33,326 bases of DNA from a virus (Duplodnaviria; Heunggongvirae; Uroviricota; Caudoviricetes). Shown here one piece after another: positions 1 through 33,326 of this stretch; the stretch's first letter is position 1; each line of letters opens with the position of its first letter. Location of the stretch: IMG/VR virus record IMGVR_UViG_2541047900_000007, one strand, 5' to 3'. A model generated the notes under the pieces. The model was not told the origin of the DNA. It saw only the letters and a list, made by a program, of their open reading frames with translations, and did no database searches. Made by a program: the position numbers and the translations under genes.

Positions 1-372
1 AGCCGCAGGCACTCCCGTTATCTGACTCCACGGGTGAGTGTGGCTGGCAGGCGCCTTGCCGGCTGCCAGGTCGTATGCAGCCTTGACCGCTTTTGGTGTG
101 GCGGCCAGCGTTTCAGAGGTGCTGTTGGTGGCACTGCTCAGTTGGGTGAACCCCTTAGCTGTCAGTGTCGCGTCCGGGTGGTTACGGGAACGTACGTGTT
201 CAGCCAGTGACTGTGCGGCTTCCTCCGTTTTCTTCTTCAGCCATTTCGTCCTGTTTGCCAGTTGCCGGGGGGCTCGATTTGATATCCCGTCTGCACCACC
301 CAGAACCGGATCTGATGTCTCCAGTTGATAGATATTTTCTTCCCACTTTTCTGTTTCATTCAGGTTTCCCAT
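1..372 (-). CDS. tail fiber protein, N-terminal part (starts at 372; gene runs off the window start)
   Basis: ATG at 372-370, two nt after the stop of the upstream gene; translation MGNLNETEKWEENIYQLETSDPVL...TAKGFTQLSSATNSTSETLAATPKAVKAAYDLA carries the conserved tail-fibre N-terminal motif; absent from ORF track because there is no stop inside the window. Confidence 0.65.
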   Translation of the reverse strand, partial: MGNLNETEKWEENIYQLETSDPVLGGADGISNRAPRQLANRTKWLKKKTEEAAQSLAEHVRSRNHPDATLTAKGFTQLSSATNSTSETLAATPKAVKAAYDLAAGKAPASHTHPWSQITGVPAA

Positions 373-374
373 AA

Positions 375-953
375 TCAACTGCTCCCGTGGTTATAACTGC
401 CATCATGGATGGCGGTATTGTTATAGCGAATGGCCACAGACTGATACTCCAGGCTGGCCAGATGGCAGCGGGCCGGTGCAAATGCAGCCAGCGTCTGACG
501 CAGCATCGCGGCCTGATCGTTAGTAATGGGCTGTTTCAGAATAACGCGATAAACTGCCCAGGCGGCTGCATCTCCATGAACAAACAGTCCGTTATAGCTG
601 CGATTGCCGTCGTAACTGAGACGACCTGTGCCTTCAATCAGATCCACTTCACCAAAGCCAAAACGGCGGATAACTTCCCGGATTGACCACGGCGTCCCTT
701 TATACCGGTGCAGTTCGATGGCTGCTTTTATAAGCATGCGGCGAACATCGTCCGATTCCGCCAGCTCCCAGCCATCGCCAGACAGTGAGAACTGCTCGCC
801 CAGCCATGGCAGCGCAGAACTGTCGACGATATCGACGAGAAAGACCATCAGTACGCTCAGGTCGATGTTATCCAGCCGTCCTGCCAGTCTTCCCAGCGTC
901 CTGAGACTGATATCACCCTCAAGCGGTGGCGGGAGTTGTAATGGCTCAGTCAT
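375..953 (-). CDS. baseplate/tail protein, P2 gpI-like (Mu gp48 position)
   Basis: 192-aa ORF overlapping the upstream J-like gene by 8 nt; position and size fit the wedge protein preceding the tail fiber. Confidence 0.6.
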   Translation of the reverse strand: MTEPLQLPPPLEGDISLRTLGRLAGRLDNIDLSVLMVFLVDIVDSSALPWLGEQFSLSGDGWELAESDDVRRMLIKAAIELHRYKGTPWSIREVIRRFGFGEVDLIEGTGRLSYDGNRSYNGLFVHGDAAAWAVYRVILKQPITNDQAAMLRQTLAAFAPARCHLASLEYQSVAIRYNNTAIHDGSYNHGSS

Positions 954-2049
954 CAGACACTCCAGTCATGTTAAGAGTGATTGCCGTACAGTTTGCCCAT
1001 TCGTTTTCTGCCACCACCCTCAGTGCCGGTGTCACCAGTTCAACCTGGTACACCCCGGAAACGGACAATGCACTGATAATCTGGCTGGGGACAATATCAC
1101 GCCCCAGCGTGGCGGCACGTGATGCCACCCAGTTCTGTATGGCGCTGTTAGCGGCATCTTTTACAGACCTGGCATCCTGATCACGATAGATCGTAATCCT
1201 GGCTTCAATGGTGTAATCCACCTTCACTGGTGTTTTAGCCCGCACTGTATCAGTGAGTGGCCTGACTTTCTCATCAGAGCAGAAACTCTCTACCAGCGTG
1301 AGAACACCGCCGTCCGGCAGACCGGTACTGAGCAGCGGATACAGATCTACGGTCCCGGGAACCGGGGAAAGCACAGCAACATCGACAATGTTGGGATGGG
1401 CCTGCATGGCATGAAAGCGGTATGCGCCACGGCTTCCGGCATTGGTGAATGACTCCGGGGCCAGCCTGATACGCTCCCGGAGCCTGTCATCGTCTTCCTG
1501 TTCTGAACCGCCGGAACTGGCCGTCAGATTGCTCACCAGCAGGTCGACGTTATCAATCTCATCGAGTAACTGACTGACCTGCGCAGGTTGCCAGCCGTTA
1601 CCAGCGGTACCGGGTTCGGTACAGGTGGACGTGACATTGACCAGCAGCAATCCGGCCTTCAGTACCACATTTGTATCGGTGGCAAAAATAACGCTGTCGG
1701 AAGCGCTGACGCGGGTGCCTGCCGGGATCAGCACATCAATGGCCAGTGCCTCATCTACGGAGAACTGGAGCGTGGTGGTGGCAGGCTGCGCGGCAAGACG
1801 GTATACACCAACCAGTTCACCGAGGTAATCAATCATCGGCTCACGGGCAAAGGCGACCAGATTCTGCTTTGCTGCCTCCTGTACCGCAACCCTGACCAGC
1901 ATTTCGCGATAGGCCCACAGATCAATCAGCAGACGTTCTGCCTGTGCCGGGTACAGCGTTTTGCCGGTATCCGCTTCATACTTCGCAATCATTTCTGCCG
2001 TGATTTTGTCGGCATCGCGTTCAATAAAATCGGGTTCTGTCAGCGCCAT
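946..2049 (-). CDS. baseplate J-like protein (Mu gp47 / P2 gpJ family)
   Basis: 367-aa ORF in the conserved V-W-J-I baseplate order; overlaps neighbours. Confidence 0.75.
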   Translation of the reverse strand: MALTEPDFIERDADKITAEMIAKYEADTGKTLYPAQAERLLIDLWAYREMLVRVAVQEAAKQNLVAFAREPMIDYLGELVGVYRLAAQPATTTLQFSVDEALAIDVLIPAGTRVSASDSVIFATDTNVVLKAGLLLVNVTSTCTEPGTAGNGWQPAQVSQLLDEIDNVDLLVSNLTASSGGSEQEDDDRLRERIRLAPESFTNAGSRGAYRFHAMQAHPNIVDVAVLSPVPGTVDLYPLLSTGLPDGGVLTLVESFCSDEKVRPLTDTVRAKTPVKVDYTIEARITIYRDQDARSVKDAANSAIQNWVASRAATLGRDIVPSQIISALSVSGVYQVELVTPALRVVAENEWANCTAITLNMTGVSDD

Positions 2050-2387
2050 AGCAGCTCCTGAGTCCGGGTCTGTCCGTCTGAGCCTTTCCAGCTCACCCGG
2101 AGCGTAAGATGTTCGCCGTCGACGGCGGGTTTAACTGACATAAGCTGGCAGCGGGGCTCCCAGCGCCGGATGGCATCGACGGATTCGCGCACCACATGCG
2201 GAATGGCCCGGTCTACAGGCCAGTCGATATAAAGATGCAGATTGCTGCCGAACTCCGGGCGATGCGGGTCGCTGCCGCGGGGAGTCCGCAGGATAATTTG
2301 AATCGCCTGCCGGATATCATCCAGCCCCCGGACAATTTCGCCGGGAGCCTGCAGGGCTGGTTGCCAGAATACTGAGGTCGTTTTCAT
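2040..2387 (-). CDS. baseplate protein W-like (GPW/gp25 family)
   Basis: 115-aa ORF directly upstream of the J-like gene, typical size and position of gpW. Confidence 0.65.
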   Translation of the reverse strand: MKTTSVFWQPALQAPGEIVRGLDDIRQAIQIILRTPRGSDPHRPEFGSNLHLYIDWPVDRAIPHVVRESVDAIRRWEPRCQLMSVKPAVDGEHLTLRVSWKGSDGQTRTQELLWR

Positions 2388-2418
2388 GGGGGCAGTATTG
2401 CCCCCGTGCGGGAACGCT

Positions 2419-2450
2419 GATATTAAAGGCGTTTAAGAAGCTCAGTGGGA
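2419..2450 (-). promoter_or_regulatory. candidate late promoter upstream of the W-like baseplate gene (class B motif)
   Basis: Plus strand GATATTAAAGGCGTTTAAGAAG; abuts the V-like gene stop; ATACTGCC element downstream on minus strand. Confidence 0.45.
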
Positions 2451-3038
2451 GTGGTGGCTGGAGTTTTCGCCATCAGACAGCATACTGCCCGTGGCATGGG
2501 CATTCCCTTTAATCTCGATATTGCCATGGATGGTCGCGGTAACACCTTTACCACCAGAACCCGCCATGCCTCCTTCGTAAATCAGCTTTCCCCTGACACG
2601 CAGATCTCCGGTAAGTTCGGTTTCCGGTGCGTCAATCGTGGCTTTCTGTGTTTTCAATACCACATCAGCACCACACTCAATGACAATATGCTCAATGCCG
2701 CCCCGGATGGTCAGAGTGTGCGTCTTCCGGTTGTAGCTGTACTCTGCACCATCAGCAAACCGGGTTCCCCGGATATTTTTGTCACTGAACGGTGGTTTAT
2801 CGACGTCTGAATACACCGCGCCCAGAATAACACCATCCTCGCCGTTGGCATCGAGCAGCACCTCAACCTGCTCCCCCACGTCAGGGAGCCAGTAATCTTT
2901 GTTATCCTGGGTATTACGCTGCAGCACGTTAAGCCAGTTTGTGCGCAGGTTATCGCATTCAGGCAGACGAACGCGGGCCTGAACCCTGTCGGCATCAACG
3001 GCACTGACCGTACCGACCTGACGAGTGACACCAGTCAT
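2442..3038 (-). CDS. baseplate assembly/spike protein V-like (Mu gp45)
   Basis: 198-aa ORF with Gly-rich, His-rich C-terminus (SSHHSH), overlaps the D-like gene by 4 nt. Confidence 0.65.
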   Translation of the reverse strand: MTGVTRQVGTVSAVDADRVQARVRLPECDNLRTNWLNVLQRNTQDNKDYWLPDVGEQVEVLLDANGEDGVILGAVYSDVDKPPFSDKNIRGTRFADGAEYSYNRKTHTLTIRGGIEHIVIECGADVVLKTQKATIDAPETELTGDLRVRGKLIYEGGMAGSGGKGVTATIHGNIEIKGNAHATGSMLSDGENSSHHSH

Positions 3039-4189
3039 TTTTTCTTCTCCTTAATCACCGTCGATGTACTGCCATCCGGGTGATAAACCGTGAGTTTCTG
3101 AGTTTTTTGTTTTTTCCCTCTTGTGACTGGCCCCCGTGCCACTTCCAGCTCTGTGGTGTAGCCGCTGTTACGGTCAAACGCATGGCGGGCAGTGGTTATG
3201 AGCCATGGCCCGGATAACTGCCCAAAACCCACCAGTTCAATTTTGTTGCCTGCTGTCAGTTGAGGTGTTCCCGTCAGCGTCAGGGAGCCGTTCTGCTGGT
3301 ATTCGTTATGTCTGGCCAGTGCTGAATCCGCTTTAATCCGGGCACTGTCCGGGTCGCTGACGCGGCTGTTAACTTTAAGTGAGTCAGCGCTGGTAACCTT
3401 ACCACCTTTGAGCTTTTTGTCGCTTTCACGGGTACCACCATCAGCTTCGTGGACGATCAGTTTTTTACTGCTGCTTTTCTGGTGTTTTACCTTTGCAGAT
3501 TTATAGACCCGGTTGATGGTGTCACGCAGGGAAAAGCGGGCCACATCCTGCGGTTTTAACTGCCTGACCGTCTCCTGACTGCGCAGTGTGGCCAGATGAG
3601 AAAAAATCAGCTGGTCACTGACCACTTTCACTGCATAACCATACTCGCTGGCCAGCCGGCGCAGAAAACCCACGTCGGTTTCAGCATACTGGGTCACCCG
3701 GTCGATTCTGATGGACTCAATGCTGCCCACCAGTTTCAGCCGGTGCTTTCTGGCAATCCGCCCCGCAACAGCTGCCAGCGTGGTGTTCTCAAAACCACGG
3801 CTGGATTTAGTCCGCAGAGCACTGTTAACCGAGGTGGCCACCCCACGGATAGAAACAACGGAAGCGGGCGAACTCACTTCGATCTCGTCTATAGAGAACG
3901 TACCGCAGGACAGCAGCTTCTCGCCCTGATAGCCCATTTTCAGCGTCAGCGTGTCACCCTTGCCCGGATACCACTTATCCAGCCAGCGGCCATCGGTGTC
4001 GTCCAGCTCCACCTCAATGGTATCGGACTCATTTTTGATGTTATCGCTCCAGGTCACACGGGTGACATAAGGCGCGATATCAGAGGTGATGTTTTTCTGC
4101 AGATACCACAGAGTGAACACCGGTGTCAGCACATCGCTGACGCCGGTTAACGCTGATGTGACTTGCGCAGTGCTGTTTATCTCAGCCAT
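3035..4189 (-). CDS. tail/baseplate hub protein, P2 gpD-like (Mu P/gp44 family)
   Basis: 384-aa ORF following tape measure/U/X genes; size and order fit late control gene D family. Confidence 0.7.
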   Translation of the reverse strand: MAEINSTAQVTSALTGVSDVLTPVFTLWYLQKNITSDIAPYVTRVTWSDNIKNESDTIEVELDDTDGRWLDKWYPGKGDTLTLKMGYQGEKLLSCGTFSIDEIEVSSPASVVSIRGVATSVNSALRTKSSRGFENTTLAAVAGRIARKHRLKLVGSIESIRIDRVTQYAETDVGFLRRLASEYGYAVKVVSDQLIFSHLATLRSQETVRQLKPQDVARFSLRDTINRVYKSAKVKHQKSSSKKLIVHEADGGTRESDKKLKGGKVTSADSLKVNSRVSDPDSARIKADSALARHNEYQQNGSLTLTGTPQLTAGNKIELVGFGQLSGPWLITTARHAFDRNSGYTTELEVARGPVTRGKKQKTQKLTVYHPDGSTSTVIKEKKK

Positions 4190-4392
4190 GGGGCAATATC
4201 CTCTTCTGTACGGGCTTCTTCAGTCTCAATCACCGGGATCAGTAACAACAGCCCGGAGGGCAGCACCGGCGTGATGGCCACGTGCGGATTGGCGGCAATA
4301 ATCCGGGGATAGCCCAGCGGGTCACCGTAGTACTGCCATGCCAGCGAATCCCAGCGCTCTCCGTCACGGGTAACATGTTCAAGAAACATCAC
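4177..4392 (-). CDS. tail protein X-like (small LysM-like tail protein)
   Basis: 71-aa ORF with RWDSLAWQYYG...AANP motif resembling P2 gpX; ATGA start/stop overlap with upstream gene. Confidence 0.55.
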   Translation of the reverse strand: MMFLEHVTRDGERWDSLAWQYYGDPLGYPRIIAANPHVAITPVLPSGLLLLIPVIETEEARTEEDIAPWLR

Positions 4393-5273
4393 ACACTCCT
4401 CGTCAGTATTCTGGCGGCCATTGCACTTAATCCCGGAGACATGCGGTTGAATGCTGTGCCGGCGGCGTTAAGCTGCCCGGAAACGGTATCCAGAGCACCT
4501 GCAATATTTCTTTTGTCCACACCACTCAGCGCAGACTGTGCCTGCTGTACATACGTGGCTGCTTCGCTGGCTGTTCTGGCCAGACTGATGGCATCGGGCA
4601 TGGATTCAGAGAGTGCGTTAAACGCCGGAACACTTTTCCCCAGAGCCCCGGAGATATTACCCAGTCCGCTCATCAGCCCCGGCACACGGGTCAGTGCGAC
4701 AACGGGGTTATCCTTCATTTTCTGTGTCACCCGAACGGCGCTGATAGTGGTCTGGAGTACAGACTGCGCCTGTTTCGCATAGTTGACGCCGTTGCGGATG
4801 AACTGCGCCACCCCTGAAGGTGAAGGAATGGCACCGGAGACCGCCCCGACACCCGGGAGCTTCGTGCGTATTGCCGGTGGTTGCAGAGGATTTTTCGGAT
4901 CACCGGTGTATTCCCGGAGAGACACGGTGGCACTGACAGCCAGCACGTTACCGGTGCTGTCTGTCTGCTCGCTGGTTGCGGTCACATCGGTAATCACGAA
5001 CCAGCCACGATAGTCACCGTTGCCGAAGACCAGCGCCAGTGCCTGATGGGCTTTCATGGCTGTTCGCAGTCTCGCCAGCTCCACATCGGGTACACAATAA
5101 TGCTGATGGAAAACCAGAGTTATCTGGATTTCGTCCAGCCTGTCGCCGACGAACTGCAGGCCAGGCTTACCCCCGATGCGGGCATGCTCCGCATAATCGA
5201 CGCCGAACGTGGCCTCGAAGCCGTCCCAGTAGGTAATCAGCTCAAACTCAATATCACCCAGTACGGCAAACAT
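4389..5273 (-). CDS. tail protein with gpU-like N-terminal domain (Mu N / DNA circulation protein family)
   Basis: 294-aa ORF immediately downstream of tape measure; N-terminal pattern IGGKPGLQFVGD...GWFVI resembles gpU/DNA-circulation N-domain. Confidence 0.5.
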   Translation of the reverse strand: MFAVLGDIEFELITYWDGFEATFGVDYAEHARIGGKPGLQFVGDRLDEIQITLVFHQHYCVPDVELARLRTAMKAHQALALVFGNGDYRGWFVITDVTATSEQTDSTGNVLAVSATVSLREYTGDPKNPLQPPAIRTKLPGVGAVSGAIPSPSGVAQFIRNGVNYAKQAQSVLQTTISAVRVTQKMKDNPVVALTRVPGLMSGLGNISGALGKSVPAFNALSESMPDAISLARTASEAATYVQQAQSALSGVDKRNIAGALDTVSGQLNAAGTAFNRMSPGLSAMAARILTRSV

Positions 5274-5899
5274 CAGCGGTACTCCTTACGTTGTTTCTGA
5301 GCCAGCAGACGCTCCAGCATTTTTTCCAGCTCATGCAGGCTCATATTCAGGGCGCCAGTCAGTCCGGCAGGCGCTGTGGTTTCCCTGCCATTGAGGAAAA
5401 ACTGAGGATTAAAGCTGACCTGGATACCACCAGACGTTCCACCGCCGGTTGCAGCTGCACCACGGCCTGAATATCCGGCAGCCAGGATTTCAGGCGAGGG
5501 GATACGGGGAACATCCGGTGTCATCTCATTTGCCAGACGTTGCCCTGGTAAAATCGATGCCCGGGTGGAGAGCGGAATAGCGGGCATGGAAGACAAACTA
5601 TTGATTACGGCTCCGATCGCATTTTTAGCAGACGACATAAACCCATTGATATCGGGCAACGGCATACTGAAGCGAACACCTGAAGTGTTATCCCGTATTT
5701 CTGGCCCCTGAATGCTCACGGGCATTTTGGGGAGCAGTTCACTGGCCATTCGCTGCCCGGCCAGAGCTGCAAGCGGAGTGGTCCGCTGCAGGCCAATGGC
5801 GGCCCCCTGCGCGATATTGTCACCAAAGCCCATAAACACGCGGCTCGGCGAATGAATGCCCAGCTTTTCGCTGAACCAGCCACTGATGCTGTCACCCAT
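5273..5899 (-). CDS. tape measure protein C-terminal fragment (frame stays open upstream to about 6148 but has no start codon before ATG 5899)
   Basis: Begins MGDSISGWF, the same peptide that ends each upstream tape-measure repeat unit; same frame as the ancestral tape measure after removing a 145-bp partial repeat. Confidence 0.5.
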   Translation of the reverse strand: MGDSISGWFSEKLGIHSPSRVFMGFGDNIAQGAAIGLQRTTPLAALAGQRMASELLPKMPVSIQGPEIRDNTSGVRFSMPLPDINGFMSSAKNAIGAVINSLSSMPAIPLSTRASILPGQRLANEMTPDVPRIPSPEILAAGYSGRGAAATGGGTSGGIQVSFNPQFFLNGRETTAPAGLTGALNMSLHELEKMLERLLAQKQRKEYR

Positions 5900-6555
5900 T
5901 CCGGTTACACTGGATTTGAGCGACTCCCATTTGTTTTTGATACCGTTAATCAGACCGTCGACAAGATGGCCACCGAAGTCGGTGAACTTTGCCGGCAGAT
6001 CAACACCAAGATATTTCAGCGCAGCTGCAAAGGCTTTATAGAGCAGACCTGCCGGCGACCAGTTAATCAGCAGCTTACCAGTTCCCGCGATACCGCCGTT
6101 AAAGGCTTCCTGAATGTCAGCCCAGCACTGTTTAAACCAGCTACTGATGGCCGAAATATTTCAGCGCAGCCGCAAAGGCTTTATAGAGCAGGCCTGCCGG
6201 CGACCAGTTAATCAGCAACTTACCAGTTCCCGCGATACCGCCGTTAAAGGCTTCCTGAATGTCAGCCCAGCACTGTTTAAACCAGCTACTGATGCTGTCA
6301 CCCATTCCGGTTACACTGGATTTGAGCGACCCCCATTTGTTTTTGATACCGTTAATCAGACCGTCGATAAGATGGCCACCGAAGTCGGTGAACTTTGCCG
6401 GCAGAGCAACGCCGAAATATTTCAGCGCAGCCGCAAAGGCTTTATAGAGCAGGCCTGCCGGCGACCAGTTAATCAGCAACTTACCAATTCCCACAATGCC
6501 GCCGTTAAAGGCTTCCTGAATGTCTGCCCAGCGCTGTTTAAACCAGCCACTGACT
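5873..6555. repeat. imperfect tandem repeat inside the tape measure gene: 261-bp units at 5889-6149 and 6295-6555 with a 145-bp partial unit at 6150-6294
   Basis: Direct alignment of plus-strand text; the same ~87-aa peptide (SWFKQ.WADIQEAFNGG...KYFG...GMGDSIS) recurs in the translation. Confidence 0.85.
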
Positions 6556-8369
6556 GCCCCCCAGTTGCGGTAGATAAGGTAAGCTGCTGCCGCGACAGCG
6601 GTGATAACGAGACCGATGGGATTCATCATCAGCGCACGTCCAATCCAGAGAACAGCACGTCCGGCGAGCATAATTCCGCGAACCAGCCCCCCGGAGAGCA
6701 CGCCACTCAGTGTTCTGGCTCCTTTGGCGACGGCGCTAAATCCGGTCACCAGCCAGCGGAGCTTACCGCCTTGCCCCAGTGCGAGCGACAGACGAAGCCA
6801 GTTGGCCCGAAGTAAAACAGCATTTTTCCAGACACTTACAAAGGGGGAAATAAGGAGATTCAGCCCCAGTTTGAGACCAACAGTCGCTATCTTAATCGCA
6901 AGGAGCGCACTGATGAGCTTAAAAGCCCCACTGACAAATTGCGGGTGAGTCGCTACCCAGTGTTTTGCCCCCTGAATGAGTGGAAGCAGTTCCTGAGTCA
7001 GAGAAATAAAAGATGGAGCTAATTGATCGCCCAGCGTAATTGCCAGATCACGACTGCTGACCATAAGTGCTTTAGTGGCTTCAAGGGGAGATTTCAGCCG
7101 CTGATCATAAGCACTGGCAAGCAAATCGTTATCCGCAGCCCTGAGAGCACCGGCACGGATCTCTCGATATCTGTCCATGTTGGCCAGCATCGGGCGGATA
7201 AATGCCATGACCTGCATATCCGCGAACATATCGCCCAGACCAAAGTTTTTCGCCAGAGCCTGAAGTGCCTCATCTCTTGCCGTATCATTCTTTATTTTCA
7301 TGGCTGATTTGAAGCCGGCCAGCGCTTCGGGGCTTTTGGCATTGAGGTAACGTTCTATAACACTCAACATCCCTTCAATCGGAGAGATCCCCGCAGCTTT
7401 ATAACTCGCAATAGATCCCTGCAAATCAATACCCAGATCAGCAAACTGTTTCTGAGTATCGCGGGCAAAAATTTTGGTAAGAAAGTTTTTAAAATTATTG
7501 GCTGCTTCGTCGGTGGAACCTGCACCGATTTTTGCTATCTGGAGACTGGCCCCGATTTCAGCAACAGCCTCTTTTCCACTGGCAATACCCGCCATCATTG
7601 GGGCCAGGGACTGCATCCACTTGACCTGATCCGGGATTTCAAATGACCCCTGGTCACCGGCATAAGCCATAATATTCTGAACGGCACCAAAATCTCTGGC
7701 CGCACCTTTCAGGGAGTTTTGCCAGACTGCGGCCACTTTTGCCCAGTCCTGAGCAGACGTGCGTGTTGCCGTTGCCGCGCGGGCAATATCCGGCATCAGA
7801 AAACCGATATCTGACACATTATCAATATTGTCGCTGATGAGTGAACCCACCGCCTCCTGCAGCTCATCCTGATACTGATTGTATTTAAGCGCCCAGCCTT
7901 TTATCTGTCCGGCAAGTGCATCCCGCGTTTTATTGTCATATTTTGCGGTGATCGACATATCAATCATTTTGTCCTGAAAAGACATGGACTGCTGAACGGC
8001 AGGGGAAACCGTATGATAAACAGTCTGTGCCATGCCATACGCTTCAATCCCCTGACCATACAGCGCCATGCGGTTAGCTTTCAGCGCATCACTGGTAGCG
8101 GATGCCGCTGACAGACGGCGCTGCTGGCGCTCAATTTGCTCCATGGTGCGGCTTACCCGCAGCAGCTCGCTGTTGAGATGCTGCATCCGGGAAGAACCCA
8201 GTTGACCATAACGTTCTGTTGCACGGGTTAAAGCGTTCTGACGTTCCTGCAGGCGGCGTGAGGTATCGCTCAGGGAATCAAGCGCACGGCGGGTACCGCT
8301 CATTGCAGAACGGAATGTGCTACCAATCATCCCGCCGATAACAACGCCGACTGAAAACTGTCCCGACAT
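6141..8369 (-). CDS. tail tape measure protein, N-terminal 742 aa (terminated by a frameshift at a repeat junction)
   Basis: Long ORF after the tail chaperone; GGAGGT ribosome-binding site before ATG 8369; coiled-coil and hydrophobic stretches typical of tape measure; ends HQ* exactly at the partial-repeat junction. Confidence 0.8.
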   Translation of the reverse strand: MSGQFSVGVVIGGMIGSTFRSAMSGTRRALDSLSDTSRRLQERQNALTRATERYGQLGSSRMQHLNSELLRVSRTMEQIERQQRRLSAASATSDALKANRMALYGQGIEAYGMAQTVYHTVSPAVQQSMSFQDKMIDMSITAKYDNKTRDALAGQIKGWALKYNQYQDELQEAVGSLISDNIDNVSDIGFLMPDIARAATATRTSAQDWAKVAAVWQNSLKGAARDFGAVQNIMAYAGDQGSFEIPDQVKWMQSLAPMMAGIASGKEAVAEIGASLQIAKIGAGSTDEAANNFKNFLTKIFARDTQKQFADLGIDLQGSIASYKAAGISPIEGMLSVIERYLNAKSPEALAGFKSAMKIKNDTARDEALQALAKNFGLGDMFADMQVMAFIRPMLANMDRYREIRAGALRAADNDLLASAYDQRLKSPLEATKALMVSSRDLAITLGDQLAPSFISLTQELLPLIQGAKHWVATHPQFVSGAFKLISALLAIKIATVGLKLGLNLLISPFVSVWKNAVLLRANWLRLSLALGQGGKLRWLVTGFSAVAKGARTLSGVLSGGLVRGIMLAGRAVLWIGRALMMNPIGLVITAVAAAAYLIYRNWGAVSGWFKQRWADIQEAFNGGIVGIGKLLINWSPAGLLYKAFAAALKYFGVALPAKFTDFGGHLIDGLINGIKNKWGSLKSSVTGMGDSISSWFKQCWADIQEAFNGGIAGTGKLLINWSPAGLLYKAFAAALKYFGHQ

Positions 8370-12343: not shown

Positions 12344-12344
12344 G

Positions 12345-22890: not shown

Positions 22891-22892
22891 CA

Positions 22893-23480: not shown

Positions 23481-23564
23481 CACCTTTTACATTAAAATTT
23501 CAGAACGCAGCATGATGCCGCCTTTGTCTTTTTTCTGATCCCATGGTAATTCAGCTGTTATTTT

Positions 23565-25012: not shown

Positions 25013-25059
25013 CTATCACATATAAAACAAACATCATTGCATCAACAAAGGAGACAACA

Positions 25060-25248: not shown

Positions 25249-25300
25249 ATTTTCCACATATGCAACAGGTTATCACATATTGCAAAAATGGAAATGTGAC

Positions 25301-25609
25301 ATGAGTAAAGTAAATATTTCCAGTTCTGGGACCCGCATCCTACGTGTACTCAAAGCTCTACGCGGTCATGCTCTGAACGGTGTTTCTAACGGTGAACTGG
25401 CATCAGCCCTGGGGGAGTCCCCGGCGAATATCAATCGAGCACTTAATACCCTTATTGAAGAGGGACTGGCCATGAAATTAGAGAACGGACGTTTCGCACC
25501 GGGAATCCAGTTACTACAGATCGCCATGGCTCACAGTCACGAGATGGCGCGTGCACAGGATCGTATTAACGAAATCAACCAACGAGTTATTTCAGGTAGT
25601 CGTTTGTAA
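25301..25609 (+). CDS. winged-helix transcriptional regulator-like protein
   Basis: Start set to ATG 25301 (MSKVNISSSGTRILRVLKAL...); HTH-like segment GVSNGELASALGESPANINRALNTLIEEGL. Confidence 0.45.
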   Translation: MSKVNISSSGTRILRVLKALRGHALNGVSNGELASALGESPANINRALNTLIEEGLAMKLENGRFAPGIQLLQIAMAHSHEMARAQDRINEINQRVISGSRL

Positions 25610-25619
25610 GGAGTAATCA

Positions 25620-26534: not shown

Positions 26535-26537
26535 CCA

Positions 26538-28307
26538 ATGAATGCTGCCCTGACTGAACGACTGGTTTATGTCGCCCGCGCGGCACGTGACGCGGGGCAT
26601 GGTAAACGCGGTGCAATATACGACGCTGCCTGTGCTGAACTTGGCATGTCCCGCGCCACTCTGCTGCGCAGGCTGAAGGAGGTCTCTGTGACTGATAAAC
26701 GCAAAAAACGCGCTGATGCCGGACGCAGCGCCCTGACCCGCGACGAAGCCGCGCTGATATCTGCCACACTGCGTGAGGCCACCCGCAAGAACGGTAAGCG
26801 CCTCTATTCCATCGCAGATGCAGTGGAAACCCTGCGGGCTAACGGCTTTATCACCGCAGGCAGAACAGATGAAACCACCGGTGAGTTTTTCCCGTTGTCT
26901 GAAGATGCCATCAGCCGTGCTCTGCGTAACTATGGCCTGCACCCGGAACAACTGGATGCTCCTGCACCGCATACCGAAGTGGCCAGTCTGCACCCCAATC
27001 ATGTCTGGCAGATTGACGCCTCACTCTGCACGCTTTACTACCTGAGCAATGGACATAAAGGGCTGCAGGTGATGGACAGCGCGAAGTTCTACAAGAACAA
27101 GCCCGCTAACCTTGCCCGTATCGCCAGTGACCGCGTGTGGAGTTACGAGATTACCGACCATGCCAGCGGCTGGATTTACGTTGAGTATGTGACGGGCGCG
27201 GAATCAGGTGAGAACCTGTGTTCTGTGCTTATCAACGCCATGCAGGAGCGTGGCGGCGCAGACGTGCTGCACGGCGTGCCAAAAATACTCTATCTCGACC
27301 CCGGCTCGGCAAACACCGCGGGTATGACGAAAAACATGTGCCGCTCACTGGGCATCGACCTGATAGCGCACAAGCCGCATAACGCCCGCGCCACCGGACA
27401 GGTGGAAAAGGCGCGAGACATTATCGAACGCAAGCTGGAGCCGGGTCTGAAGTTCCGGCCGGTTCACAGTCTGGAAGAACTCAACGCGCTGGCCGCGAAA
27501 TGGCGCAGCCACTTTAACGCCACGGCTGTTCACAGCCGCCACGGTAAAACCCGCACGGATATCTGGCTGAAGATTACTGCTGAGCAGCTGAAAAAAGCGC
27601 CTTCCGTTGAGGTATGTCATGAACTGGCTGTGGCGGCACCAGAACTCCGCAAAGTCACGCCAAAACTTCGTGTCTCGTTCCGGGGCACTGAATTTGACGT
27701 ATCAACGGTACCGGGCGTACTGGTTGGTGAAAAACTGATGATTACCCGTAACCCATGGCGCAGCGATGTGGCACAGGTGGTTCTGACCGGTGAGGACGGC
27801 CACGAGACGTTCTTCCTGGTCGAAGAGGTCAGAAAGAACGAGTTTGGCTTTGCTGAAGGCGCGGCGGTATTTGGCGAAAGTTACAAAGCCCTGCCGGAAA
27901 CCCCGGCACAGATGGCGGCAAAAGAAACCGAAGCGCTGGTTACCGGTACAGACAACGCCGCAGATGCAGCCGCCGCACGCAAGGCGAAGGCGCTGCCGTT
28001 CGGCGGGCGGCTTGACCCGTATAAACATATCGACGACACCACACTTCCGGCCTATATGCCGAAGCGTGGTCAGGCCTCTGACGTACGCGGGCCGCGCACT
28101 GAACAACGTCCCATGACTCATGTGGAGGCCGCGAAAGCCCTGCGCGATAAGTTCAGCGCCGACGGCCTTACCTGGACGCCGGAACATTACCGCCAGTTAA
28201 CGGCACAGTACCCGGACGGCGTACCGGAAGCCGCACTGGATGAAGTCATGGCCACGCTGACCACACCGGCCAGCAGCAGTGTTATCAGCATTGTTAACGG
28301 CAACTGA
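26538..28307 (+). CDS. DDE transposase, MuA-like (transposable-phage transposase A)
   Basis: 589-aa ORF with N-terminal HTH and integrase-core-like region (HVWQIDASL...LYLDPGSANT); followed by an AAA+ B-like gene; GGAGG ribosome-binding site. Confidence 0.8.
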   Translation: MNAALTERLVYVARAARDAGHGKRGAIYDAACAELGMSRATLLRRLKEVSVTDKRKKRADAGRSALTRDEAALISATLREATRKNGKRLYSIADAVETLRANGFITAGRTDETTGEFFPLSEDAISRALRNYGLHPEQLDAPAPHTEVASLHPNHVWQIDASLCTLYYLSNGHKGLQVMDSAKFYKNKPANLARIASDRVWSYEITDHASGWIYVEYVTGAESGENLCSVLINAMQERGGADVLHGVPKILYLDPGSANTAGMTKNMCRSLGIDLIAHKPHNARATGQVEKARDIIERKLEPGLKFRPVHSLEELNALAAKWRSHFNATAVHSRHGKTRTDIWLKITAEQLKKAPSVEVCHELAVAAPELRKVTPKLRVSFRGTEFDVSTVPGVLVGEKLMITRNPWRSDVAQVVLTGEDGHETFFLVEEVRKNEFGFAEGAAVFGESYKALPETPAQMAAKETEALVTGTDNAADAAAARKAKALPFGGRLDPYKHIDDTTLPAYMPKRGQASDVRGPRTEQRPMTHVEAAKALRDKFSADGLTWTPEHYRQLTAQYPDGVPEAALDEVMATLTTPASSSVISIVNGN

Positions 28308-28317
28308 GGAGGGAAAC

Positions 28318-29484
28318 ATGCTGGTACTGAAGCAGCAACTGAAAGAGGCCCGTATTCCACAGGCGGTGGTGGCGAGAGCTGTCGATGTTTCTGAGGCCAC
28401 GCTGGCCCAGATTGTGAATCATAACGCGTGGCCCCGCACCAGCCCCGGAGAAGTGCGCCGGCGTCTTGCGTCCTGGCTGGAAAGTCAGGGGATTGATACA
28501 ACGAAGAGTTTTGATGCTGTACAGGGCGCGGCCACGCCCCGTACAGCGGGTACCACAGATAAAACGAGCCTCAGTGAGGAAGAGAATATGTTACTCAAAA
28601 AACAGGTGTTATTTCCAGCAACCAAAAAAGCGTTTGGTCTTTTCCGTGACCCGTTCGCCGACGAAGCCATGCAGGGTTCTGATGATGTGTTCACCACCCC
28701 GGACATTCGCTACGTGCGTGAGGCGTTGTACCAGACAGCCCGTCATGGTGGGTTTATGGCCGTCATCGGTGAGTCCGGTGCGGGTAAATCCACGCTGCGC
28801 CGCGACCTGACTGAACGTATCAACCGCGAGAATGCGCCGGTAATTGTTATCGAGCCATACATCATCGCTATGGAAGACAACGATGTGAAAGGGAAAACCC
28901 TGAAGGCAGCAGCGATTGCCGAAGCCATTATCAGTACCATCGCACCACTGGAAAGCATCAGACGCAGTCAGGACGCCCGCTTTCGCCAGTTGCATCGCGT
29001 CCTGAAAGACAGCAGCCAGGCGGGGTTCAGCCACGTTCTGGTGATTGAGGAGGCCCACAGTCTGCCCATTCCGACACTGAAACACCTCAAACGCTTTTTT
29101 GAGCTGGAGTCCGGTTTCAAAAAACTGCTGTCCATCGTGCTGATTGGCCAGCCGGAACTGGCGACAAAACTGTCTGAACGCAATATGGAAGTCCGTGAAG
29201 TCGTTCAGCGCTGTGAGGTGGTCGAACTTCTGCCTCTGGACAATAACCTTGAAGAATTTCTGACGTTCAAACTGCAACGGGCCGGTAAACAACTGACGGA
29301 CATTATGGACGCCAGCGCAGTGGATGCCATACGTGCCCGCCTGAGCAATCCGGGAAGTCATCGTAAAAATATGGTCAGCCTGCTGTATCCGCTGGCCGTC
29401 AGTAACCTGGTGATAGCCGCCATGAATCTGGCCGCTGAAATCGGGGTTCCACAGGTCAATGCTGACGTTGTCAAAGGGGTTTAA
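28318..29484 (+). CDS. DNA transposition AAA+ ATPase, MuB-like
   Basis: Walker A GESGAGKST and Walker B-like VLVIEEAH; N-terminal HTH; start at ATG 28318 after GGAGGG, 10 nt past the transposase stop. Confidence 0.75.
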   Translation: MLVLKQQLKEARIPQAVVARAVDVSEATLAQIVNHNAWPRTSPGEVRRRLASWLESQGIDTTKSFDAVQGAATPRTAGTTDKTSLSEEENMLLKKQVLFPATKKAFGLFRDPFADEAMQGSDDVFTTPDIRYVREALYQTARHGGFMAVIGESGAGKSTLRRDLTERINRENAPVIVIEPYIIAMEDNDVKGKTLKAAAIAEAIISTIAPLESIRRSQDARFRQLHRVLKDSSQAGFSHVLVIEEAHSLPIPTLKHLKRFFELESGFKKLLSIVLIGQPELATKLSERNMEVREVVQRCEVVELLPLDNNLEEFLTFKLQRAGKQLTDIMDASAVDAIRARLSNPGSHRKNMVSLLYPLAVSNLVIAAMNLAAEIGVPQVNADVVKGV

Positions 29485-29486
29485 TA

Positions 29487-29756
29487 ATGAAATCCACCAC
29501 AGTTATCAGCCAGCAGATTAACAAAGTGCAGTCAGCCATTATGGCACTTAAGGCGACGAATACGGATATACAGAGCATCACCATCAGGGGCCATAAACCT
29601 GTCATCCGAGTTTCCCGGAGTGCGCATTGCATACACATGCTTGAACAGGGGAAAGCCAGTTATCTGTATACCGGTCATGACCACAGGGGTCATTTCCGTC
29701 AGGGCGTTTTCGAACTGCACGGCTGTCGCGTCGTGTGGCCGGAATCTTTGTGGTAA
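29487..29756 (+). CDS. hypothetical early protein
   Basis: 89-aa ORF starting 2 nt after the B-like gene stop. Confidence 0.45.
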   Translation: MKSTTVISQQINKVQSAIMALKATNTDIQSITIRGHKPVIRVSRSAHCIHMLEQGKASYLYTGHDHRGHFRQGVFELHGCRVVWPESLW

Positions 29757-29783
29757 TCAGCACAACCGGAGAAATCATAAAAT

Positions 29784-30314
29784 ATGGCAAAAAGTACAAA
29801 AGGGGCAAAACGTATCAAGTCCGCAGCGGCACTCTGGGTACCGGGGACACGCGAAGAGGTCATTGAGGGCATCAGACTGCTCGGTGACGCACAACGTGAA
29901 CTGGTCAGGGCTGAAACAGAAATGAATGACGCCATTGGCGATATCACCGCACGTTATGCCCCGCTCACCGAGAGCCTGAAAAAACGCATGGCCGAACTGC
30001 AGTCCGGTATTCAGACATGGTGTGAGGCACACCGTGATGAACTGACCGGCAACGGGAAGGTGAAGTTCGCTAACCTCACCACCGGCGAGGTGCAGTGGCG
30101 AAACCGTCCGCCATCAGTCAGTATCCGTGGGGCGGATAATGTTATTGAATTACTGAGACGTCTGGGGCTTGAGCGCTTTATTCGTGTAAAAGAGGAAATA
30201 AATAAAGACGCTATCCTGAATGAAAAAGAGGCCGTGAAAAATATTCCCGGTATTTCCATTAAAAGCGACATTGAGGATTTTTCAATAATTCCTTTTGAGC
30301 AGGATGTGCAGTAA
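29784..30314 (+). CDS. gam: host-nuclease inhibitor Gam (Mu Gam family)
   Basis: 176-aa ORF, GGAGAA ribosome-binding site; sequence pattern and position after A/B match Mu Gam. Confidence 0.8.
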   Translation: MAKSTKGAKRIKSAAALWVPGTREEVIEGIRLLGDAQRELVRAETEMNDAIGDITARYAPLTESLKKRMAELQSGIQTWCEAHRDELTGNGKVKFANLTTGEVQWRNRPPSVSIRGADNVIELLRRLGLERFIRVKEEINKDAILNEKEAVKNIPGISIKSDIEDFSIIPFEQDVQ

Positions 30315-30411
30315 ACACACCACGTTAATTATTTAATAAAAACATTTTCTTTTTTATTCCAGCGTCAGCGCCGTGGGCTTCTGCACGCCGGAAACAGAGG
30401 AGAATTAAATT

Positions 30412-30606
30412 ATGATATTTAAATGTATTCAGTGCGAGAGGGATATAACAGCCCTGCGTTTTCACAGCGCCATCGCCGTGATGTCCGGTAAATACCACAT
30501 CCCTGCGGTACGCGTCACCCTGGTCTGCCCGTACTGCAGCCAGCATTTTTCGGCGGACGTGCCCGTCATGGAATTCTCCCGCCCTGACAGGGAGGACGCG
30601 CAATGA
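30412..30606 (+). CDS. small zinc-ribbon protein (CxxC...CxxC)
   Basis: 64-aa ORF with CIQC and CPYC pairs; GAGGAG ribosome-binding site. Confidence 0.45.
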   Translation: MIFKCIQCERDITALRFHSAIAVMSGKYHIPAVRVTLVCPYCSQHFSADVPVMEFSRPDREDAQ

Positions 30607-30875
30607 TTACCCCACAGGAAGCACGACAGCGCACCCGAACCCTTGTTGAACACTATGTCAACGAGTGTGAATGCCGCAACCTCACCGATGTGAAGCACGT
30701 CCTGACGGCACTAATCAGTATGGCCGCTCAGGCCATTGTGGCGACCAACGGAAAGGCGGCTGCCCTGCAGGTACTGGTGAACACACTCACCCACACGGCA
30801 GAGCATGAGGTGCCGTACCGGATGGAAACCACTGCAGAAGGCGGCCTGCACATCACCGTCAGCCGGAAGCACTGA
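30603..30875 (+). CDS. hypothetical early protein
   Basis: 90-aa ORF, ATGA overlap with upstream ORF. Confidence 0.45.
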   Translation: MITPQEARQRTRTLVEHYVNECECRNLTDVKHVLTALISMAAQAIVATNGKAAALQVLVNTLTHTAEHEVPYRMETTAEGGLHITVSRKH

Positions 30876-30884
30876 GGGCGCGGC

Positions 30885-31181
30885 ATGACACGGAACACCA
30901 TACTCACCCGCACCGCCCTCTACCGTCTGGCCCTGCAGCGTTTCGGGCCGGACGCACAGGCCCTGAAACTGACAGAAGAGGCCGCTGAACTGGCGGCCAG
31001 TGCTGCCCGCAATCTGAACGGACAGGGCAGCGAAAGTGACCTCGCGGCAGAGCTGGCAGACGTGGAAATCATGACAGAGCAATTGCGCCTTCAGGGGATG
31101 GACCGGCTGATTGACTTCCACAAACAGAAAAAACTGGAACGTCTGGCTGCACGACTGGGCGTGATTTACACGAACGAGTAA
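30885..31181 (+). CDS. MazG-like nucleotide pyrophosphohydrolase domain protein (tentative)
   Basis: 98-aa ORF with EEAAELAASAAR and ELADVEIMTEQL helices resembling the MazG-type EExxE / ExxD motif pair. Confidence 0.4.
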   Translation: MTRNTILTRTALYRLALQRFGPDAQALKLTEEAAELAASAARNLNGQGSESDLAAELADVEIMTEQLRLQGMDRLIDFHKQKKLERLAARLGVIYTNE

Positions 31182-31195
31182 CCGGGAGGCATTCA

Positions 31196-31411
31196 ATGGC
31201 TGACATACTCAGGGAAATCACCGCATGGACACTGATTCTTACTGGCCTGGCGACATGCCTCAGTGCGGGGGCAGCCCTGGCTGCCCTGCTGATGCACATA
31301 ACAACACAGTGGTTATGGGAAAAGCTTAAAGCAGCATACAGCCTGAAAGAGCTGTCCGACGCTGTCCGGGCATGGAAACGGCAGAAAAATACCGGAGATA
31401 CAGAACAATGA
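31196..31411 (+). CDS. small membrane protein
   Basis: 71-aa ORF with one hydrophobic helix (WTLILTGLATCLSAGAALAALL). Confidence 0.4.
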   Translation: MADILREITAWTLILTGLATCLSAGAALAALLMHITTQWLWEKLKAAYSLKELSDAVRAWKRQKNTGDTEQ

Positions 31412-32091
31412 CAGACCAGAATAAACACATTGAGAAACTGAAAAAGTTGCTGGCGCTGGCCGCATCCGGCAACCCGCACGAGGCCGCTCTGGCACTGCGC
31501 CGAGCCCGTAAACTGATGGATGTTCACGGCATCACACATTCCGACATTGCTATGAGTGATATTGATGAAACCATCAGTCATTACTGGCCGACAGGCAGTC
31601 TCCGTCCACCGCGCTACATGCTGGGCCTGATGAACATCATCCGCGAGGCATTTGGTGTTAACTCCATCATTCACCCCGGCACGCATCCGTCTGTGGGGTT
31701 CTACGGTAACCGGGAACGAGCGGCACTGGCTGCATACACCTGGGAAGTGCTGGTCCGCCAACTGAAAAAGGCGCGTCAGCAGTATATCAGCGCACAGAAC
31801 AAAAGAATAAAAAACGCCACCCGTACCAGCCGTGGAAACCAGTTTGCTGAAGGCTGGGTACTGGCCGTTATCAGTGAAATACAGTCCTTTGCCCTGACCG
31901 ATGATGAGCGTGAACTGATGCAACAGTGGCTGGAACATAAATACCCGCAAACGCAAACCACCAGGGCGCGTAAACCGGGAAGAAGCCGCAATGGCGACGC
32001 CTCGCGCTATGCGGGGTTTCGTGAAGGGCAGAACGTCAGACTGCACCGCCCGGTCAGTGGGCAGGAACAACAGAAACTGGAGGCCAGATGA
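31408..32091 (+). CDS. conserved prophage early protein (DUF2786-like N-terminus)
   Basis: Start set to ATG 31408 (MTDQNKHIEKLKKLLALA...), overlapping the upstream stop as ATGA, GGAGA upstream. Confidence 0.5.
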   Translation: MTDQNKHIEKLKKLLALAASGNPHEAALALRRARKLMDVHGITHSDIAMSDIDETISHYWPTGSLRPPRYMLGLMNIIREAFGVNSIIHPGTHPSVGFYGNRERAALAAYTWEVLVRQLKKARQQYISAQNKRIKNATRTSRGNQFAEGWVLAVISEIQSFALTDDERELMQQWLEHKYPQTQTTRARKPGRSRNGDASRYAGFREGQNVRLHRPVSGQEQQKLEAR

Positions 32092-32318
32092 TTACGCTAT
32101 CAGGTAACAGCCGGAAATTAAAAGCCTGCCGAATATCTGCCAGATACCTTTTTGCCCGCGCCTTTTTTAAGAACGTCAGGCCGGGGATCACAATTGGTGT
32201 TATTGCCGGACGCGAACAGGTTGAAAAATACATGTCAGGTGCATGGTGGAATAACGACCCTGTCATTGCTGCCCGTAATATTCATATCGAATGGGGAGGT
32301 ATTCAGAATGACTACTGA
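32088..32318 (+). CDS. hypothetical protein
   Basis: 76-aa ORF, ATGA overlap with upstream gene. Confidence 0.35.
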   Translation: MITLSGNSRKLKACRISARYLFARAFFKNVRPGITIGVIAGREQVEKYMSGAWWNNDPVIAARNIHIEWGGIQNDY

Positions 32319-32514
32319 AACCATTGTCTGTTTTCTTTTCTGGTATATGTACGCAGGATCATGCAGCGCAAGACTTCATCGTTCCCTGGGCTATGGCAGG
32401 CACTACGACACCGCGCATTACATCCTGTACATGACCGCCGTCATGTTGTTCTGGCCAGTCACCCTGCCAGCTGCAACCGACATTGTTGCCGACAGACTGA
32501 AAAAAAGGAGATGA
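32308..32514 (+). CDS. small membrane protein
   Basis: Start set to ATG 32308 (MTTETIVCFLFWYMYAG...), GGGGAGG upstream; two hydrophobic segments. Confidence 0.4.
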   Translation: MTTETIVCFLFWYMYAGSCSARLHRSLGYGRHYDTAHYILYMTAVMLFWPVTLPAATDIVADRLKKRR

Positions 32515-32515
32515 T

Positions 32516-32965
32516 ATGCAGAAAAAACGCCTGATACAGCTTATCCATATTGCCCGTAATGAACTGGGTATGGATGAAGACACCTACCGCCAGATGTTAC
32601 AGGGGCTGACCGGTAAAGCCTCAACCAAAGGAATGGATACCACACAACTAAACTGCGTGCTGGAATCCATGAAAAAGAAAGGCTTTCGCGTTAAACCAGC
32701 CAGAAAAGCCAGCTCCGGTTTACCGCTGGATAACCATCCGCAGTCCAGGAAAATTCGTGCGCTATGGCTTGAAATGGCTGCTGCCGGCATTGTTCGTGAC
32801 CGTTCAGAAAATGCATTAGCGAGGTGGATCAAGCGGGAAACGGGCATCAGCGCCCTGCGCTGGCTCAGTACTGAACAGGCAAGCAGTGTTATTGAGAAAC
32901 TGAAGAAGTGGCAGCGCAGAGCTGCGGGAGTCAAACATGAGCGACCTGAATCAGTTTCGAAGTAA
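32516..32965 (+). CDS. gemA: GemA-like protein (Mu gp16 family)
   Basis: 149-aa ORF immediately upstream of the Mor-like gene, as in Mu. Confidence 0.65.
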   Translation: MQKKRLIQLIHIARNELGMDEDTYRQMLQGLTGKASTKGMDTTQLNCVLESMKKKGFRVKPARKASSGLPLDNHPQSRKIRALWLEMAAAGIVRDRSENALARWIKRETGISALRWLSTEQASSVIEKLKKWQRRAAGVKHERPESVSK

Positions 32966-33326
32966 GGGGCCGGAACTCCTGGTGGAACTGGCACAGCATA
33001 CCTCTGAGACCGTTCGCGAGATTATTGATATTGAGCCCGAAGTTGCCGACCAGATTGGTCAGGCCGTCGCGAACCGAATGATGCAGGTCTGGGGCGGGCA
33101 AAACGTTTATTTCCCGATGGGCATGGTATGGAAGGTCAGTCAGCGCGACCGGGAAATCTTCAGGGAGTTTAACGGACGCAACCACCACGAACTGGCCCGC
33201 AAATTTGGTGTTTCGCTTCAGTGGGTCTACAGCGTGGTTAAGCGGGTAAGAAAAGAAGAACTGGATCGGATGCAGGGCAAGCTATTTGCTGATGAACCCG
33301 ATGCAGATACGGAGAAAAAAGAGTAA
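32937..33326 (+). CDS. mor: Mor-like middle-operon transcription activator (Mor/C family)
   Basis: 129-aa ORF with WGGQNVYFP and FNGRNHHELARKFGVSLQWVY motifs characteristic of the Mor/C family; stop is the last codon of the window. Confidence 0.7.
   Translation: MSDLNQFRSKGPELLVELAQHTSETVREIIDIEPEVADQIGQAVANRMMQVWGGQNVYFPMGMVWKVSQRDREIFREFNGRNHHELARKFGVSLQWVYSVVKRVRKEELDRMQGKLFADEPDADTEKKE

Follow-up and report, generated by a model that had tools for sequence, protein, structure and literature searches.

Divergent operon layout of a BcepMu-type transposable prophage of Escherichia coli

We analysed a 33,326-nucleotide stretch of DNA from a virus of the Caudoviricetes (IMG/VR record IMGVR_UViG_2541047900_000007; the whole stretch is hereafter the window), in which an initial annotation had placed late genes on one strand and early genes on the other. 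The window is almost certainly about 89% of a single BcepMu-type transposable prophage of Escherichia coli, roughly 37.4 kb long and built from divergent operons; what it lacks is the distal tail-fibre/invertase segment on one side and 162 bp on the other. Near-identical sequences and the layout are both in the public record, so that the finding is already known; the element itself is an unremarkable representative of an established phage group.

Divergent layout and its conservation

A six-frame list of open reading frames (ORFs), read together with the RefSeq annotation of near-identical prophages, places 29 tail, head and lysis genes in one unbroken run on the minus strand (1-22248, from the 5' part of the tail-fibre gene at 1-372 to the holin gene at 21898-22248) and 16 genes in an unbroken run on the plus strand (25060-33326), leading from a helix-turn-helix (HTH) regulator through transposase, Gam and GemA to Mor, whose stop codon ends on the final base of the window (33326). 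Four genes lie between the blocks, one on the plus strand (22379-22855) and three on the minus strand (22893-23483, 23565-24551 and 24548-25009). The strand switch coincides with a change in base composition: AT skew is about -0.15 to +0.05 over most of 1-21 kb and +0.12 to +0.23 beyond 21 kb, and GC content is 41-45% at 23-26 kb versus 54-60% in the remaining window. ORF map, annotation and composition thus bear out the divergent layout (minus-strand late genes, plus-strand early genes) of the initial annotation. It had let both blocks diverge from 22.3-25.1 kb; the region is right, but the two directions of reading part at the 50-bp gap 25010-25059, and the late operon begins ~2.7 kb to the left of this gap, where it has a promoter region of its own beyond a terminator-like hairpin and a single plus-strand gene. 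Its description of the plus strand as running from ner to mor was correct for the strand and for Mor but not for the first early gene, an XRE-type HTH gene and not a Ner homologue; because the 62-aa product is homologous to BcepMu gp16 and shows no similarity to Mu Ner, the label is positional analogy only, and the present assignment corrects a tempting annotation.

The resemblance to BcepMu-type phages, proposed in the initial annotation, was verified from the strand map of Burkholderia phage BcepMu (NC_005882) and from collinear blastp homology. BcepMu genes 1-16 lie on one strand (Mor, GemA, an ExeA-like protein, the transposase, gp10, gp12 and the HTH protein gp16) and genes 17-52 on the opposite strand (a cI-like repressor, then lysis, head and P2-like tail). 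Homologues were found for 37 of the 49 window ORFs, in exact collinear order, on the same relative strands and at 31-76% protein identity. Tail genes I to U are collinear with gp51-gp45 (46-63% identity), the block at 11182-14776 with gp38-gp32 (42-53%), and the lysis cassette, for which RefSeq names agree, matches gp25-gp21 (32-61%); the block at 14991-20198 is 45-67% identical to gp31-gp26 and 23-49% identical to Mu G, F, gp29, gp28 and gp27. A Mu-type head and packaging module is joined in this way to a P2-type contractile tail: TerL, portal, F and G match both Mu and BcepMu, and sheath, tube, U, X, D, V, W, J and I match BcepMu genes annotated as P2 FI, FII, U, X, D, V, W, J and I. Both elements have an rve transposase with an ExeA-like ATPase immediately downstream and a single Mor ending the early operon; here Mor adjoins one end, its stop codon lying 162 bp from the right end of the element. 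BcepMu genes 1-16 have been reported to be induced together as a block by peroxide stress (PMC3417384), which fits a single early transcription unit. The element is a BcepMu-like group member on every feature tested.

The layout was followed across the family by scanning IMG/VR with an alignment of three transposases; 547 contigs encode a relative, and the best 80 of these 547 (69-100% transposase identity) were kept. Counting detected copies within those 80 contigs, the following lie on the strand opposite to the transposase and upstream of it: TerL (63/63), TerS (63/63), holin (62/62), endolysin (61/61), portal (57/57) and repressor (21/21). On the same strand and downstream lie the ATPase (79/79), GemA (74/74) and Mor (74/74). 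The divergent layout is neither chance nor peculiar to this contig, because it is the same in BcepMu, in the Klebsiella record KP12 and Escherichia phage PhiKM (both described below), in complete E. coli genomes and in 80/80 related IMG/VR contigs.

Related copies, element ends and insertion sites

Megablast against phage records returned Escherichia phage PhiKM (PQ738613) at 96-99% identity to the window. PhiKM and the prophages of E. coli C 237-04, AVS0225, CE10 and others are essentially the same element with the same gene order (98.6-99.99% nucleotide identity over the late and early regions); PhiKM differs in its immunity module, which includes a Dam methylase, and is only 82% identical over window positions 25008-26424. 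In its record the PhiKM sequence is circularly permuted: the two phage ends meet at around 20.2-20.7 kb, in a place annotated with a 'Fe2+ ABC transporter permease' ORF. The same megablast comparison also returned Klebsiella 'phage KP12 clone KP12_2' (OM835952), at about 86-88% identity. This record has the same layout and gene set at 84-89% nucleotide identity over structural and transposition genes, and differs from the window in the immunity region and part of the early accessory genes. Although OM835952 is filed under Vequintavirinae, its sequence is that of a BcepMu-type transposable prophage and probably represents host DNA carried along in a phage preparation; its annotation cross-references the Salmonella Typhi CT18 gene STY1594, and SalMu, a prophage of S. 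Typhi, has been named as a BcepMu relative (PMC3417384).

At least a partial match occurs in 643-664 of 5426 complete E. coli genomes; at least 273 complete genomes hold at least 80% of window positions 1-25000 in one place, at least 147 hold at least 80% of 22000-33326, and one matches 22000-33326 as a single 100% piece. Reports of prophages assigned to Bcepmuvirus are routine for E. coli and gut isolates, and a substantial minority of sequenced E. coli carry a BcepMu-type prophage of this kind. In CE10 the copy is decaying: an IS3-family insertion lies in its early region (CE10 locus 39222-40399), and several late genes (gpW, TerS and a small ORF) contain internal stops.

Comparison of the AVS0225 and CE10 loci fixed the prophage ends to the base (5'-TGATGCGCCGCGCGATAAATG ... 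CATTTATCTCAAGTCTAATCA-3'). The TG...CA termini (TGATGCGCC...TCTAATCA) were read outside the window, in prophages 99.4-99.99% identical to it, and delimit an element of 37,442 bp in AVS0225 (locus 2069-39510). In the closest genome, C 237-04, one end is found 3,794 bp left of position 1 and the other 162 bp right of 33326, and searches with the true 21-nt ends gave no match inside the window at up to 3 mismatches; the view that neither phage end lies in the window therefore stands. At either end the outermost 45 nt align with the equivalent BcepMu terminus, and each end carries two GmGATAwwT repeats 23 bp apart (paired repeats 9-10 bp long), so that the terminal repeats for which the initial annotation had proposed to look were found in near-identical prophages. 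TG...CA termini are typical of BcepMu-related rve phages (PMC2628397).

The 5-bp target duplication foreseen in the initial annotation proved to be 6 bp, perfect at four of the five insertion sites examined: irp2, encoding the yersiniabactin synthetase HMWP2, in AVS0225 (CTCAGG), the Ail/Lom gene (lom) of another, lambdoid prophage in CE10 (ATGTGC), the yqcC-syd intergenic region in AH20I049 (TAGAAT) and the type II secretion gene gspL in M9682-C1 (CCCAGG). The fifth site, between a glycoside-hydrolase pseudogene and dgcM in C 237-04, has no target duplication; this copy (NZ_CP109921.1, 2604500-2648500) is flanked by a truncated glycoside-hydrolase gene beside gadBC and lies upstream of dgcM, and the flank suggests a transposition-associated deletion or inversion adjoining the prophage. 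When the irp2 flanks were joined around a single CTCAGG into a 400-nt composite, 2238 E. coli genomes matched it contiguously at 100%, which means that insertion is precise and duplicates 6 bp. BcepMu is likewise said to duplicate 6 bp. A phage end at 22.3-24.5 kb, which would have indicated two adjacent prophages, was sought with the true ends and none was found; the whole unit is mobile as one piece and is one prophage, not two. The exact end sequences and the 6-bp rule should help to delimit such prophages, which knock out genes by insertion: irp2 (yersiniabactin pathway), gspL (type II secretion) and lom.

To the left of the window lie the rest of the tail-fibre gene, an invertible tail-fibre segment and a Gin-like invertase that is 77% identical to Mu Gin and encoded 78 bp from the prophage end; this left-end segment is a host-range switch like the Mu G segment. 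In AVS0225 the stretch from the prophage end to the left edge of the window (locus 2147-6167) holds alternative tail-fibre and assembly genes in both orientations, plus the recombinase, and the segment is arranged differently among strains. BcepMu has no invertible tail-fibre segment (PMC2628397).

Gene modules, control elements and proposed working

Features of the window are collected in Table 1. Pfam found only the rve catalytic core in the transposase, and BcepMu gp09, its homologue, is annotated as Tn552/IS1604-like; a MuA homologue was ruled out, there being no match to Mu A and only rve in Pfam. The AAA+ ATPase encoded downstream is the functional counterpart of MuB. Searches of the transposase and ATPase sequences against solved structures gave marginal matches only (E about 0.004-0.007), which were uninformative.

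Table 1. Genes and non-coding elements along the window, with the comparison on which each assignment rests (gp numbers are those of BcepMu).
Feature	Position	Strand	Basis
Tail-fibre gene, 5' part (124 codons), P2 H-like	1-372	-	translation; RefSeq tail fiber protein, AVS0225 locus 5307-6539
P2-type tail/baseplate I	375-953	-	RefSeq name; BcepMu homologue
P2-type tail/baseplate J	946-2049	-	RefSeq name; BcepMu homologue
P2-type tail/baseplate W	2040-2387	-	RefSeq name; BcepMu homologue
P2-type tail/baseplate V	2442-3038	-	RefSeq name; BcepMu homologue
P2-type tail/baseplate D	3035-4189	-	RefSeq name; BcepMu homologue
P2-type tail/baseplate X	4177-4392	-	RefSeq name; BcepMu homologue
P2-type tail/baseplate U	4389-5273	-	RefSeq name; BcepMu homologue
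Tape-measure gene, two ORFs (5273-5899 and 6141-8369)	5273-8369	-	ORF map, BcepMu comparison
Tail assembly protein	8527-8862	-	
Small ORF	8960-9241	-	
Tail tube	9244-9765	-	67% identity to gp40
Tail sheath	9765-11192	-	76% identity to gp39
Head-completion/neck genes, homologues of gp38, gp37, gp36, gp35	from 11182	-	BcepMu comparison
Major head protein	12693-13646	-	BcepMu comparison
Protease/scaffold	13661-14776	-	BcepMu comparison
Putative late-promoter motif, second copy, TAAAGCAGATTAAAAT ... CCTGCATTT	14817-14848	-	before protease gene
Palindrome GGGGCTGTATTACCTTTATAAAGGCTTTACAGCCTC in G-I intergenic gap, terminator-like hairpin	14911-14946	-	conserved in BcepMu
G (Mu-type head assembly)	14991-15449	-	
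F (Mu-type head assembly)	15452-16273	-	
Portal	16254-17750	-	
TerL	17750-19291/19345	-	63% identity to BcepMu
TerS	19342-19887	-	
gp26 homologue	19887-20198	-	
Lysis cassette, membrane protein	20198-20524	-	
Lysis cassette, Rz-like lipoprotein	20521-21171	-	
Lysis cassette, SLT transglycosylase endolysin	21155-21895	-	
Lysis cassette, holin	21898-22248	-	
Putative late-promoter motif, first copy, TAACGCGCTTTAAAAT ... CCTGTATTT	22282-22315	-	before holin gene; start of late region
Cargo gene, 158-aa P-loop protein, convergent with repressor operon	22379-22855	+	weak AAA_30 match; phrog_3787 (unknown function)
Terminator-like hairpin between convergent genes, predicted to close repressor operon	22874-22891	-	
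Cargo gene, 196-aa predicted membrane protein	22893-23483	-	hydrophobic segments; PHROG family of unknown function
Cargo gene, 328-aa predicted membrane protein	23565-24551	-	hydrophobic segments; PHROG family of unknown function
Repressor, XRE-type HTH, cI-like	24548-25009	-	39% identity to gp17; HTH_31 and HTH_3
Early promoter candidate TTGACA-17-CATAAT	24984-25012	+	11/12 sigma-70 match, points into early operon
Perfect palindrome ATGAGAACAATAGTTCTCAT, candidate operator	24990-25009		fills promoter spacer, overlaps repressor start codon
62-aa XRE-type HTH (HTH_31) in Cro/Ner position, gp16 homologue	25060-25248	+	blastp, Pfam, PHROGs
Winged-helix regulator, gp12 homologue	25301-25609	+	
DUF3102 protein, gp10 homologue	25620-26534	+	41% identity; PF11300
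DDE transposase, rve catalytic core, gp09 homologue	26538-28307	+	68% identity over 581/589 aa; phrog_310 transposase
AAA+ (AAA_22/ExeA-like) transposition ATPase, gp08 homologue	28318-29484	+	59% identity; AAA_22 3.8e-20; phrog_296 DNA transposition protein
Semi-essential early genes and small ORFs	29487-32514	+	
Gam	29784-30314	+	62% identical to Mu Gam
DUF2786/DUF7168 protein	31408-32091	+	Pfam
GemA	32516-32965	+	Pfam GemA 8e-41; 44% identity to gp02
Mor	32937-33326	+	Pfam Mor 1e-43; 54% identity to gp01

The low-GC immunity and cargo module at 22316-25300 is exchangeable: positions 22844-25007 are replaced in PhiKM (the Dam methylase lies there) and 22316-25299 in KP12. The repressor is the sole BcepMu homologue in it (blastp found none for the 158-aa P-loop protein), and the two membrane-protein genes follow the repressor on the same strand, the repressor stop overlapping the next start. 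PADLOC, run on the four immunity-region proteins, gave no credible defence-system match, just generic HTH matches for the repressor, and neither Pfam nor PADLOC matched the 196-aa and 328-aa proteins; because no Pfam or PADLOC family was matched, the cargo proteins are candidates for superinfection exclusion or defence. Judged by consensus and position, the repressor operon probably stops at the hairpin ahead of the P-loop gene, and the early promoter and its palindromic operator are probably used as their placement suggests. The window holds no second perfect copy of the operator palindrome; one match with 2 mismatches, inside the transposase gene, is at chance level.

The motif TAAmGCnnwTTAAAAk, followed by CCTGnATTT, has exactly two copies in the window, ahead of the holin and protease genes. 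It occupies the same two places in KP12, and in BcepMu an identical 16-mer (TAAAGCCGATTAAAAG) stands at the two equivalent places and nowhere else. No third copy, as might mark a third late promoter before the tail genes, was found in the window at up to 1 mismatch. A single Mor/C-family gene occurs in the whole prophage, and Mu Mor and Mu C both match it. From the two motif copies and this single gene we infer a Mor-driven cascade with two promoters, in which Mor would act on both motif-bearing sites and the motif is probably the Mor-dependent element of the late promoters.

In the gap between G and the protease gene (the G-I gap) lies a palindrome whose 16-nt core (TTTATAAAGGCTTTAC) recurs unchanged in BcepMu, with flanks that fail to align; it stands at 0.504 of element length here and 0.51 in BcepMu, and the annotated strong gyrase site of Mu sits at the corresponding central position (G-I gap, genome centre). 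With a T-rich run after it, the palindrome also looks like a terminator, and it may be a terminator-like hairpin, an analogue of the gyrase site, or both. It is possible, though on balance we think it unlikely, that the late motif is a Mor site switching on all late genes in place of the Mor-then-C relay, that the TTTATAAAGGCTTTAC palindrome is the counterpart of the central gyrase site of Mu, and that both are undescribed parts of the BcepMu family. If so, the palindrome would help to bring the two phage ends together, as the central site does in Mu, and flipping of the early block in place would have preserved its central position. Late-gene control and end synapsis in the BcepMu family could become readily accessible to experiment through these two conserved non-coding elements.

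The proposed working of the element would start from the central control region, where a repressor gene reads leftward and the predicted early promoter, with the palindromic operator in its spacer, reads rightward. The early operon would run from that promoter to the right end of the element, through the two HTH regulators, the DUF3102 protein, transposase, ATPase, Gam and small genes to GemA and Mor. Mor, as the sole activator of the Mor/C family, would then act in trans on two opposite-strand promoters sharing the conserved motif, one before the lysis-packaging block and the other before the protease-capsid-tail block, both reading leftward to the far end. Such a two-step cascade (early operon, Mor, late promoters) would replace the relay from Mor to C in Mu. 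The element inserts by transposition, with TG...CA ends that carry the paired repeats and with 6-bp target duplications.

Alternative readings and comparison with known phages

The same gene map could arise if, in this contig alone, a phage that otherwise keeps the unidirectional order of Mu had recently been inverted in part or had been misassembled; an assembly-like defect does occur elsewhere in the window (a 116-bp gap in the tape-measure repeats), and a DNA invertase is encoded just outside it. Such an origin is exceedingly improbable, because closed E. coli genomes keep order and strands across both junctions (at least 273 genomes for positions 1-25000 and at least 147 for 22000-33326), one genome holds 22000-33326 in a single 100% piece, and the layout is invariant in relatives down to 69% transposase identity and in BcepMu. 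Two prophages, or a prophage and a remnant, lying head to head with a junction at 22.3-24.5 kb would account for lysis, head and tail genes from one and the transposition module from the other, and the stretch at 22.3-25.3 kb does have a distinct lower GC content, lacks BcepMu homologues besides the repressor and is swapped in PhiKM and KP12. We nevertheless give this next to no credence: the window has no end-like sequence, at four independent sites one TG...CA pair and one 6-bp duplication enclose the 37.4-kb unit, the empty site is exact, the late block itself encodes neither transposase nor integrase, and the same juxtaposition is seen in BcepMu, which was isolated as a phage, and in 80/80 relatives. 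It is also very unlikely that the element is a true Mu relative (Muvirus) with a flipped early region, to which knowledge of the transposition and regulatory proteins of Mu would apply directly. Homology to Mu is seen in Gam (62% identity), GemA, Mor, TerL (49%), F (48%), portal and G, and the invertase resembles Gin; but Mu c, Ner, A and B have no detectable similarity here, the transposase shows just the rve core in Pfam, the tail is P2-type with Mu tail matches absent except a weak J, there is one Mor/C gene instead of two, and the target duplication is 6 bp and not 5.

Some observations weigh against reading the window as a single BcepMu-type prophage controlled in the way proposed. Ends and duplications come from near-identical prophages (99.4-99.99%) and not from the contig of the window itself, and the closest genome, C 237-04 (99.94-99.99%), has the same ends without a target duplication, which points to later rearrangement beside the prophage. 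The tape-measure gene is interrupted (break at about 5899-6141), because 116 bp are absent relative to C 237-04 within a 261-bp tandem-repeat region and the frame is shifted; the gene is intact in that strain (1070 aa), and the break may be a repeat collapse in assembly or mark a genuinely defective prophage copy. The promoter, operator and Mor-box assignments are consensus matches together with a motif defined from the same sequences, the one independent piece of evidence being the recurrence of this motif in BcepMu. Finally, whole-window megablast gave no BcepMu match; membership holds at the level of the BcepMu-like group and not clearly at that of the genus. The ICTV genus criterion is a genome-wide nucleotide identity of about 70% with the type species, and identity to BcepMu is probably below 70%, given the lack of a megablast match and the protein identities of 31-76%; NCBI taxonomy places the 99%-identical PhiKM under Bcepmuvirus.

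With Mu (NC_000929) the element has in common a transposable lifestyle, TG...CA ends, Gam, GemA, Mor, head-assembly genes, a Gin-type invertase and the G-I intergenic gap at the genome centre. Matches to Mu by blastp are limited to 10 window ORFs (Gam at 62%, GemA, Mor, TerS, TerL, portal, F, G, gp36 and a weak J), and neither blastp nor tblastn found similarity to Mu c, Ner, A or B in the window or the prophage at E below 0.1; Mu has MuA, MuB, c and Ner, unrelated in sequence to the proteins of this element. As the initial annotation had stated, the operons of Mu all read one way, from the left end (the exceptions being c, gp15 and the G(-) tail-fibre copies), whereas those of the window diverge. 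That annotation described the late region as inverted; early and late genes do lie on opposite strands, but relative to the phage ends it is the early block that is flipped, because the tail-fibre/invertase end corresponds to the right end of Mu. Next to the other end lies Mor, not repressor and transposase, and the control region is about 8.5 kb inside. Mu also differs in having two activators (Mor, then C) where this element has one Mor/C-family gene, Mu-type tail genes where this element has a P2-type tail, and a 5-bp target duplication.

Burkholderia phage KS10 is a transposable myovirus whose first ~17 kb appears inverted relative to Mu, with a D3112-like transposase, no TG...CA ends and no flanking direct repeats (PMC2628397); it is a different lineage. 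BcepMu has in common with the element the TG...CA ends, similar paired repeats, the two late motifs and the central palindrome core, and differs in its immunity cargo genes, in its early accessory genes (HU, DUF3164 and pyrophosphatase, where the window has Mu-type Gam and DUF2786) and in carrying an acyltransferase at the place where the E. coli element has its Gin-like invertase and invertible tail-fibre segment.

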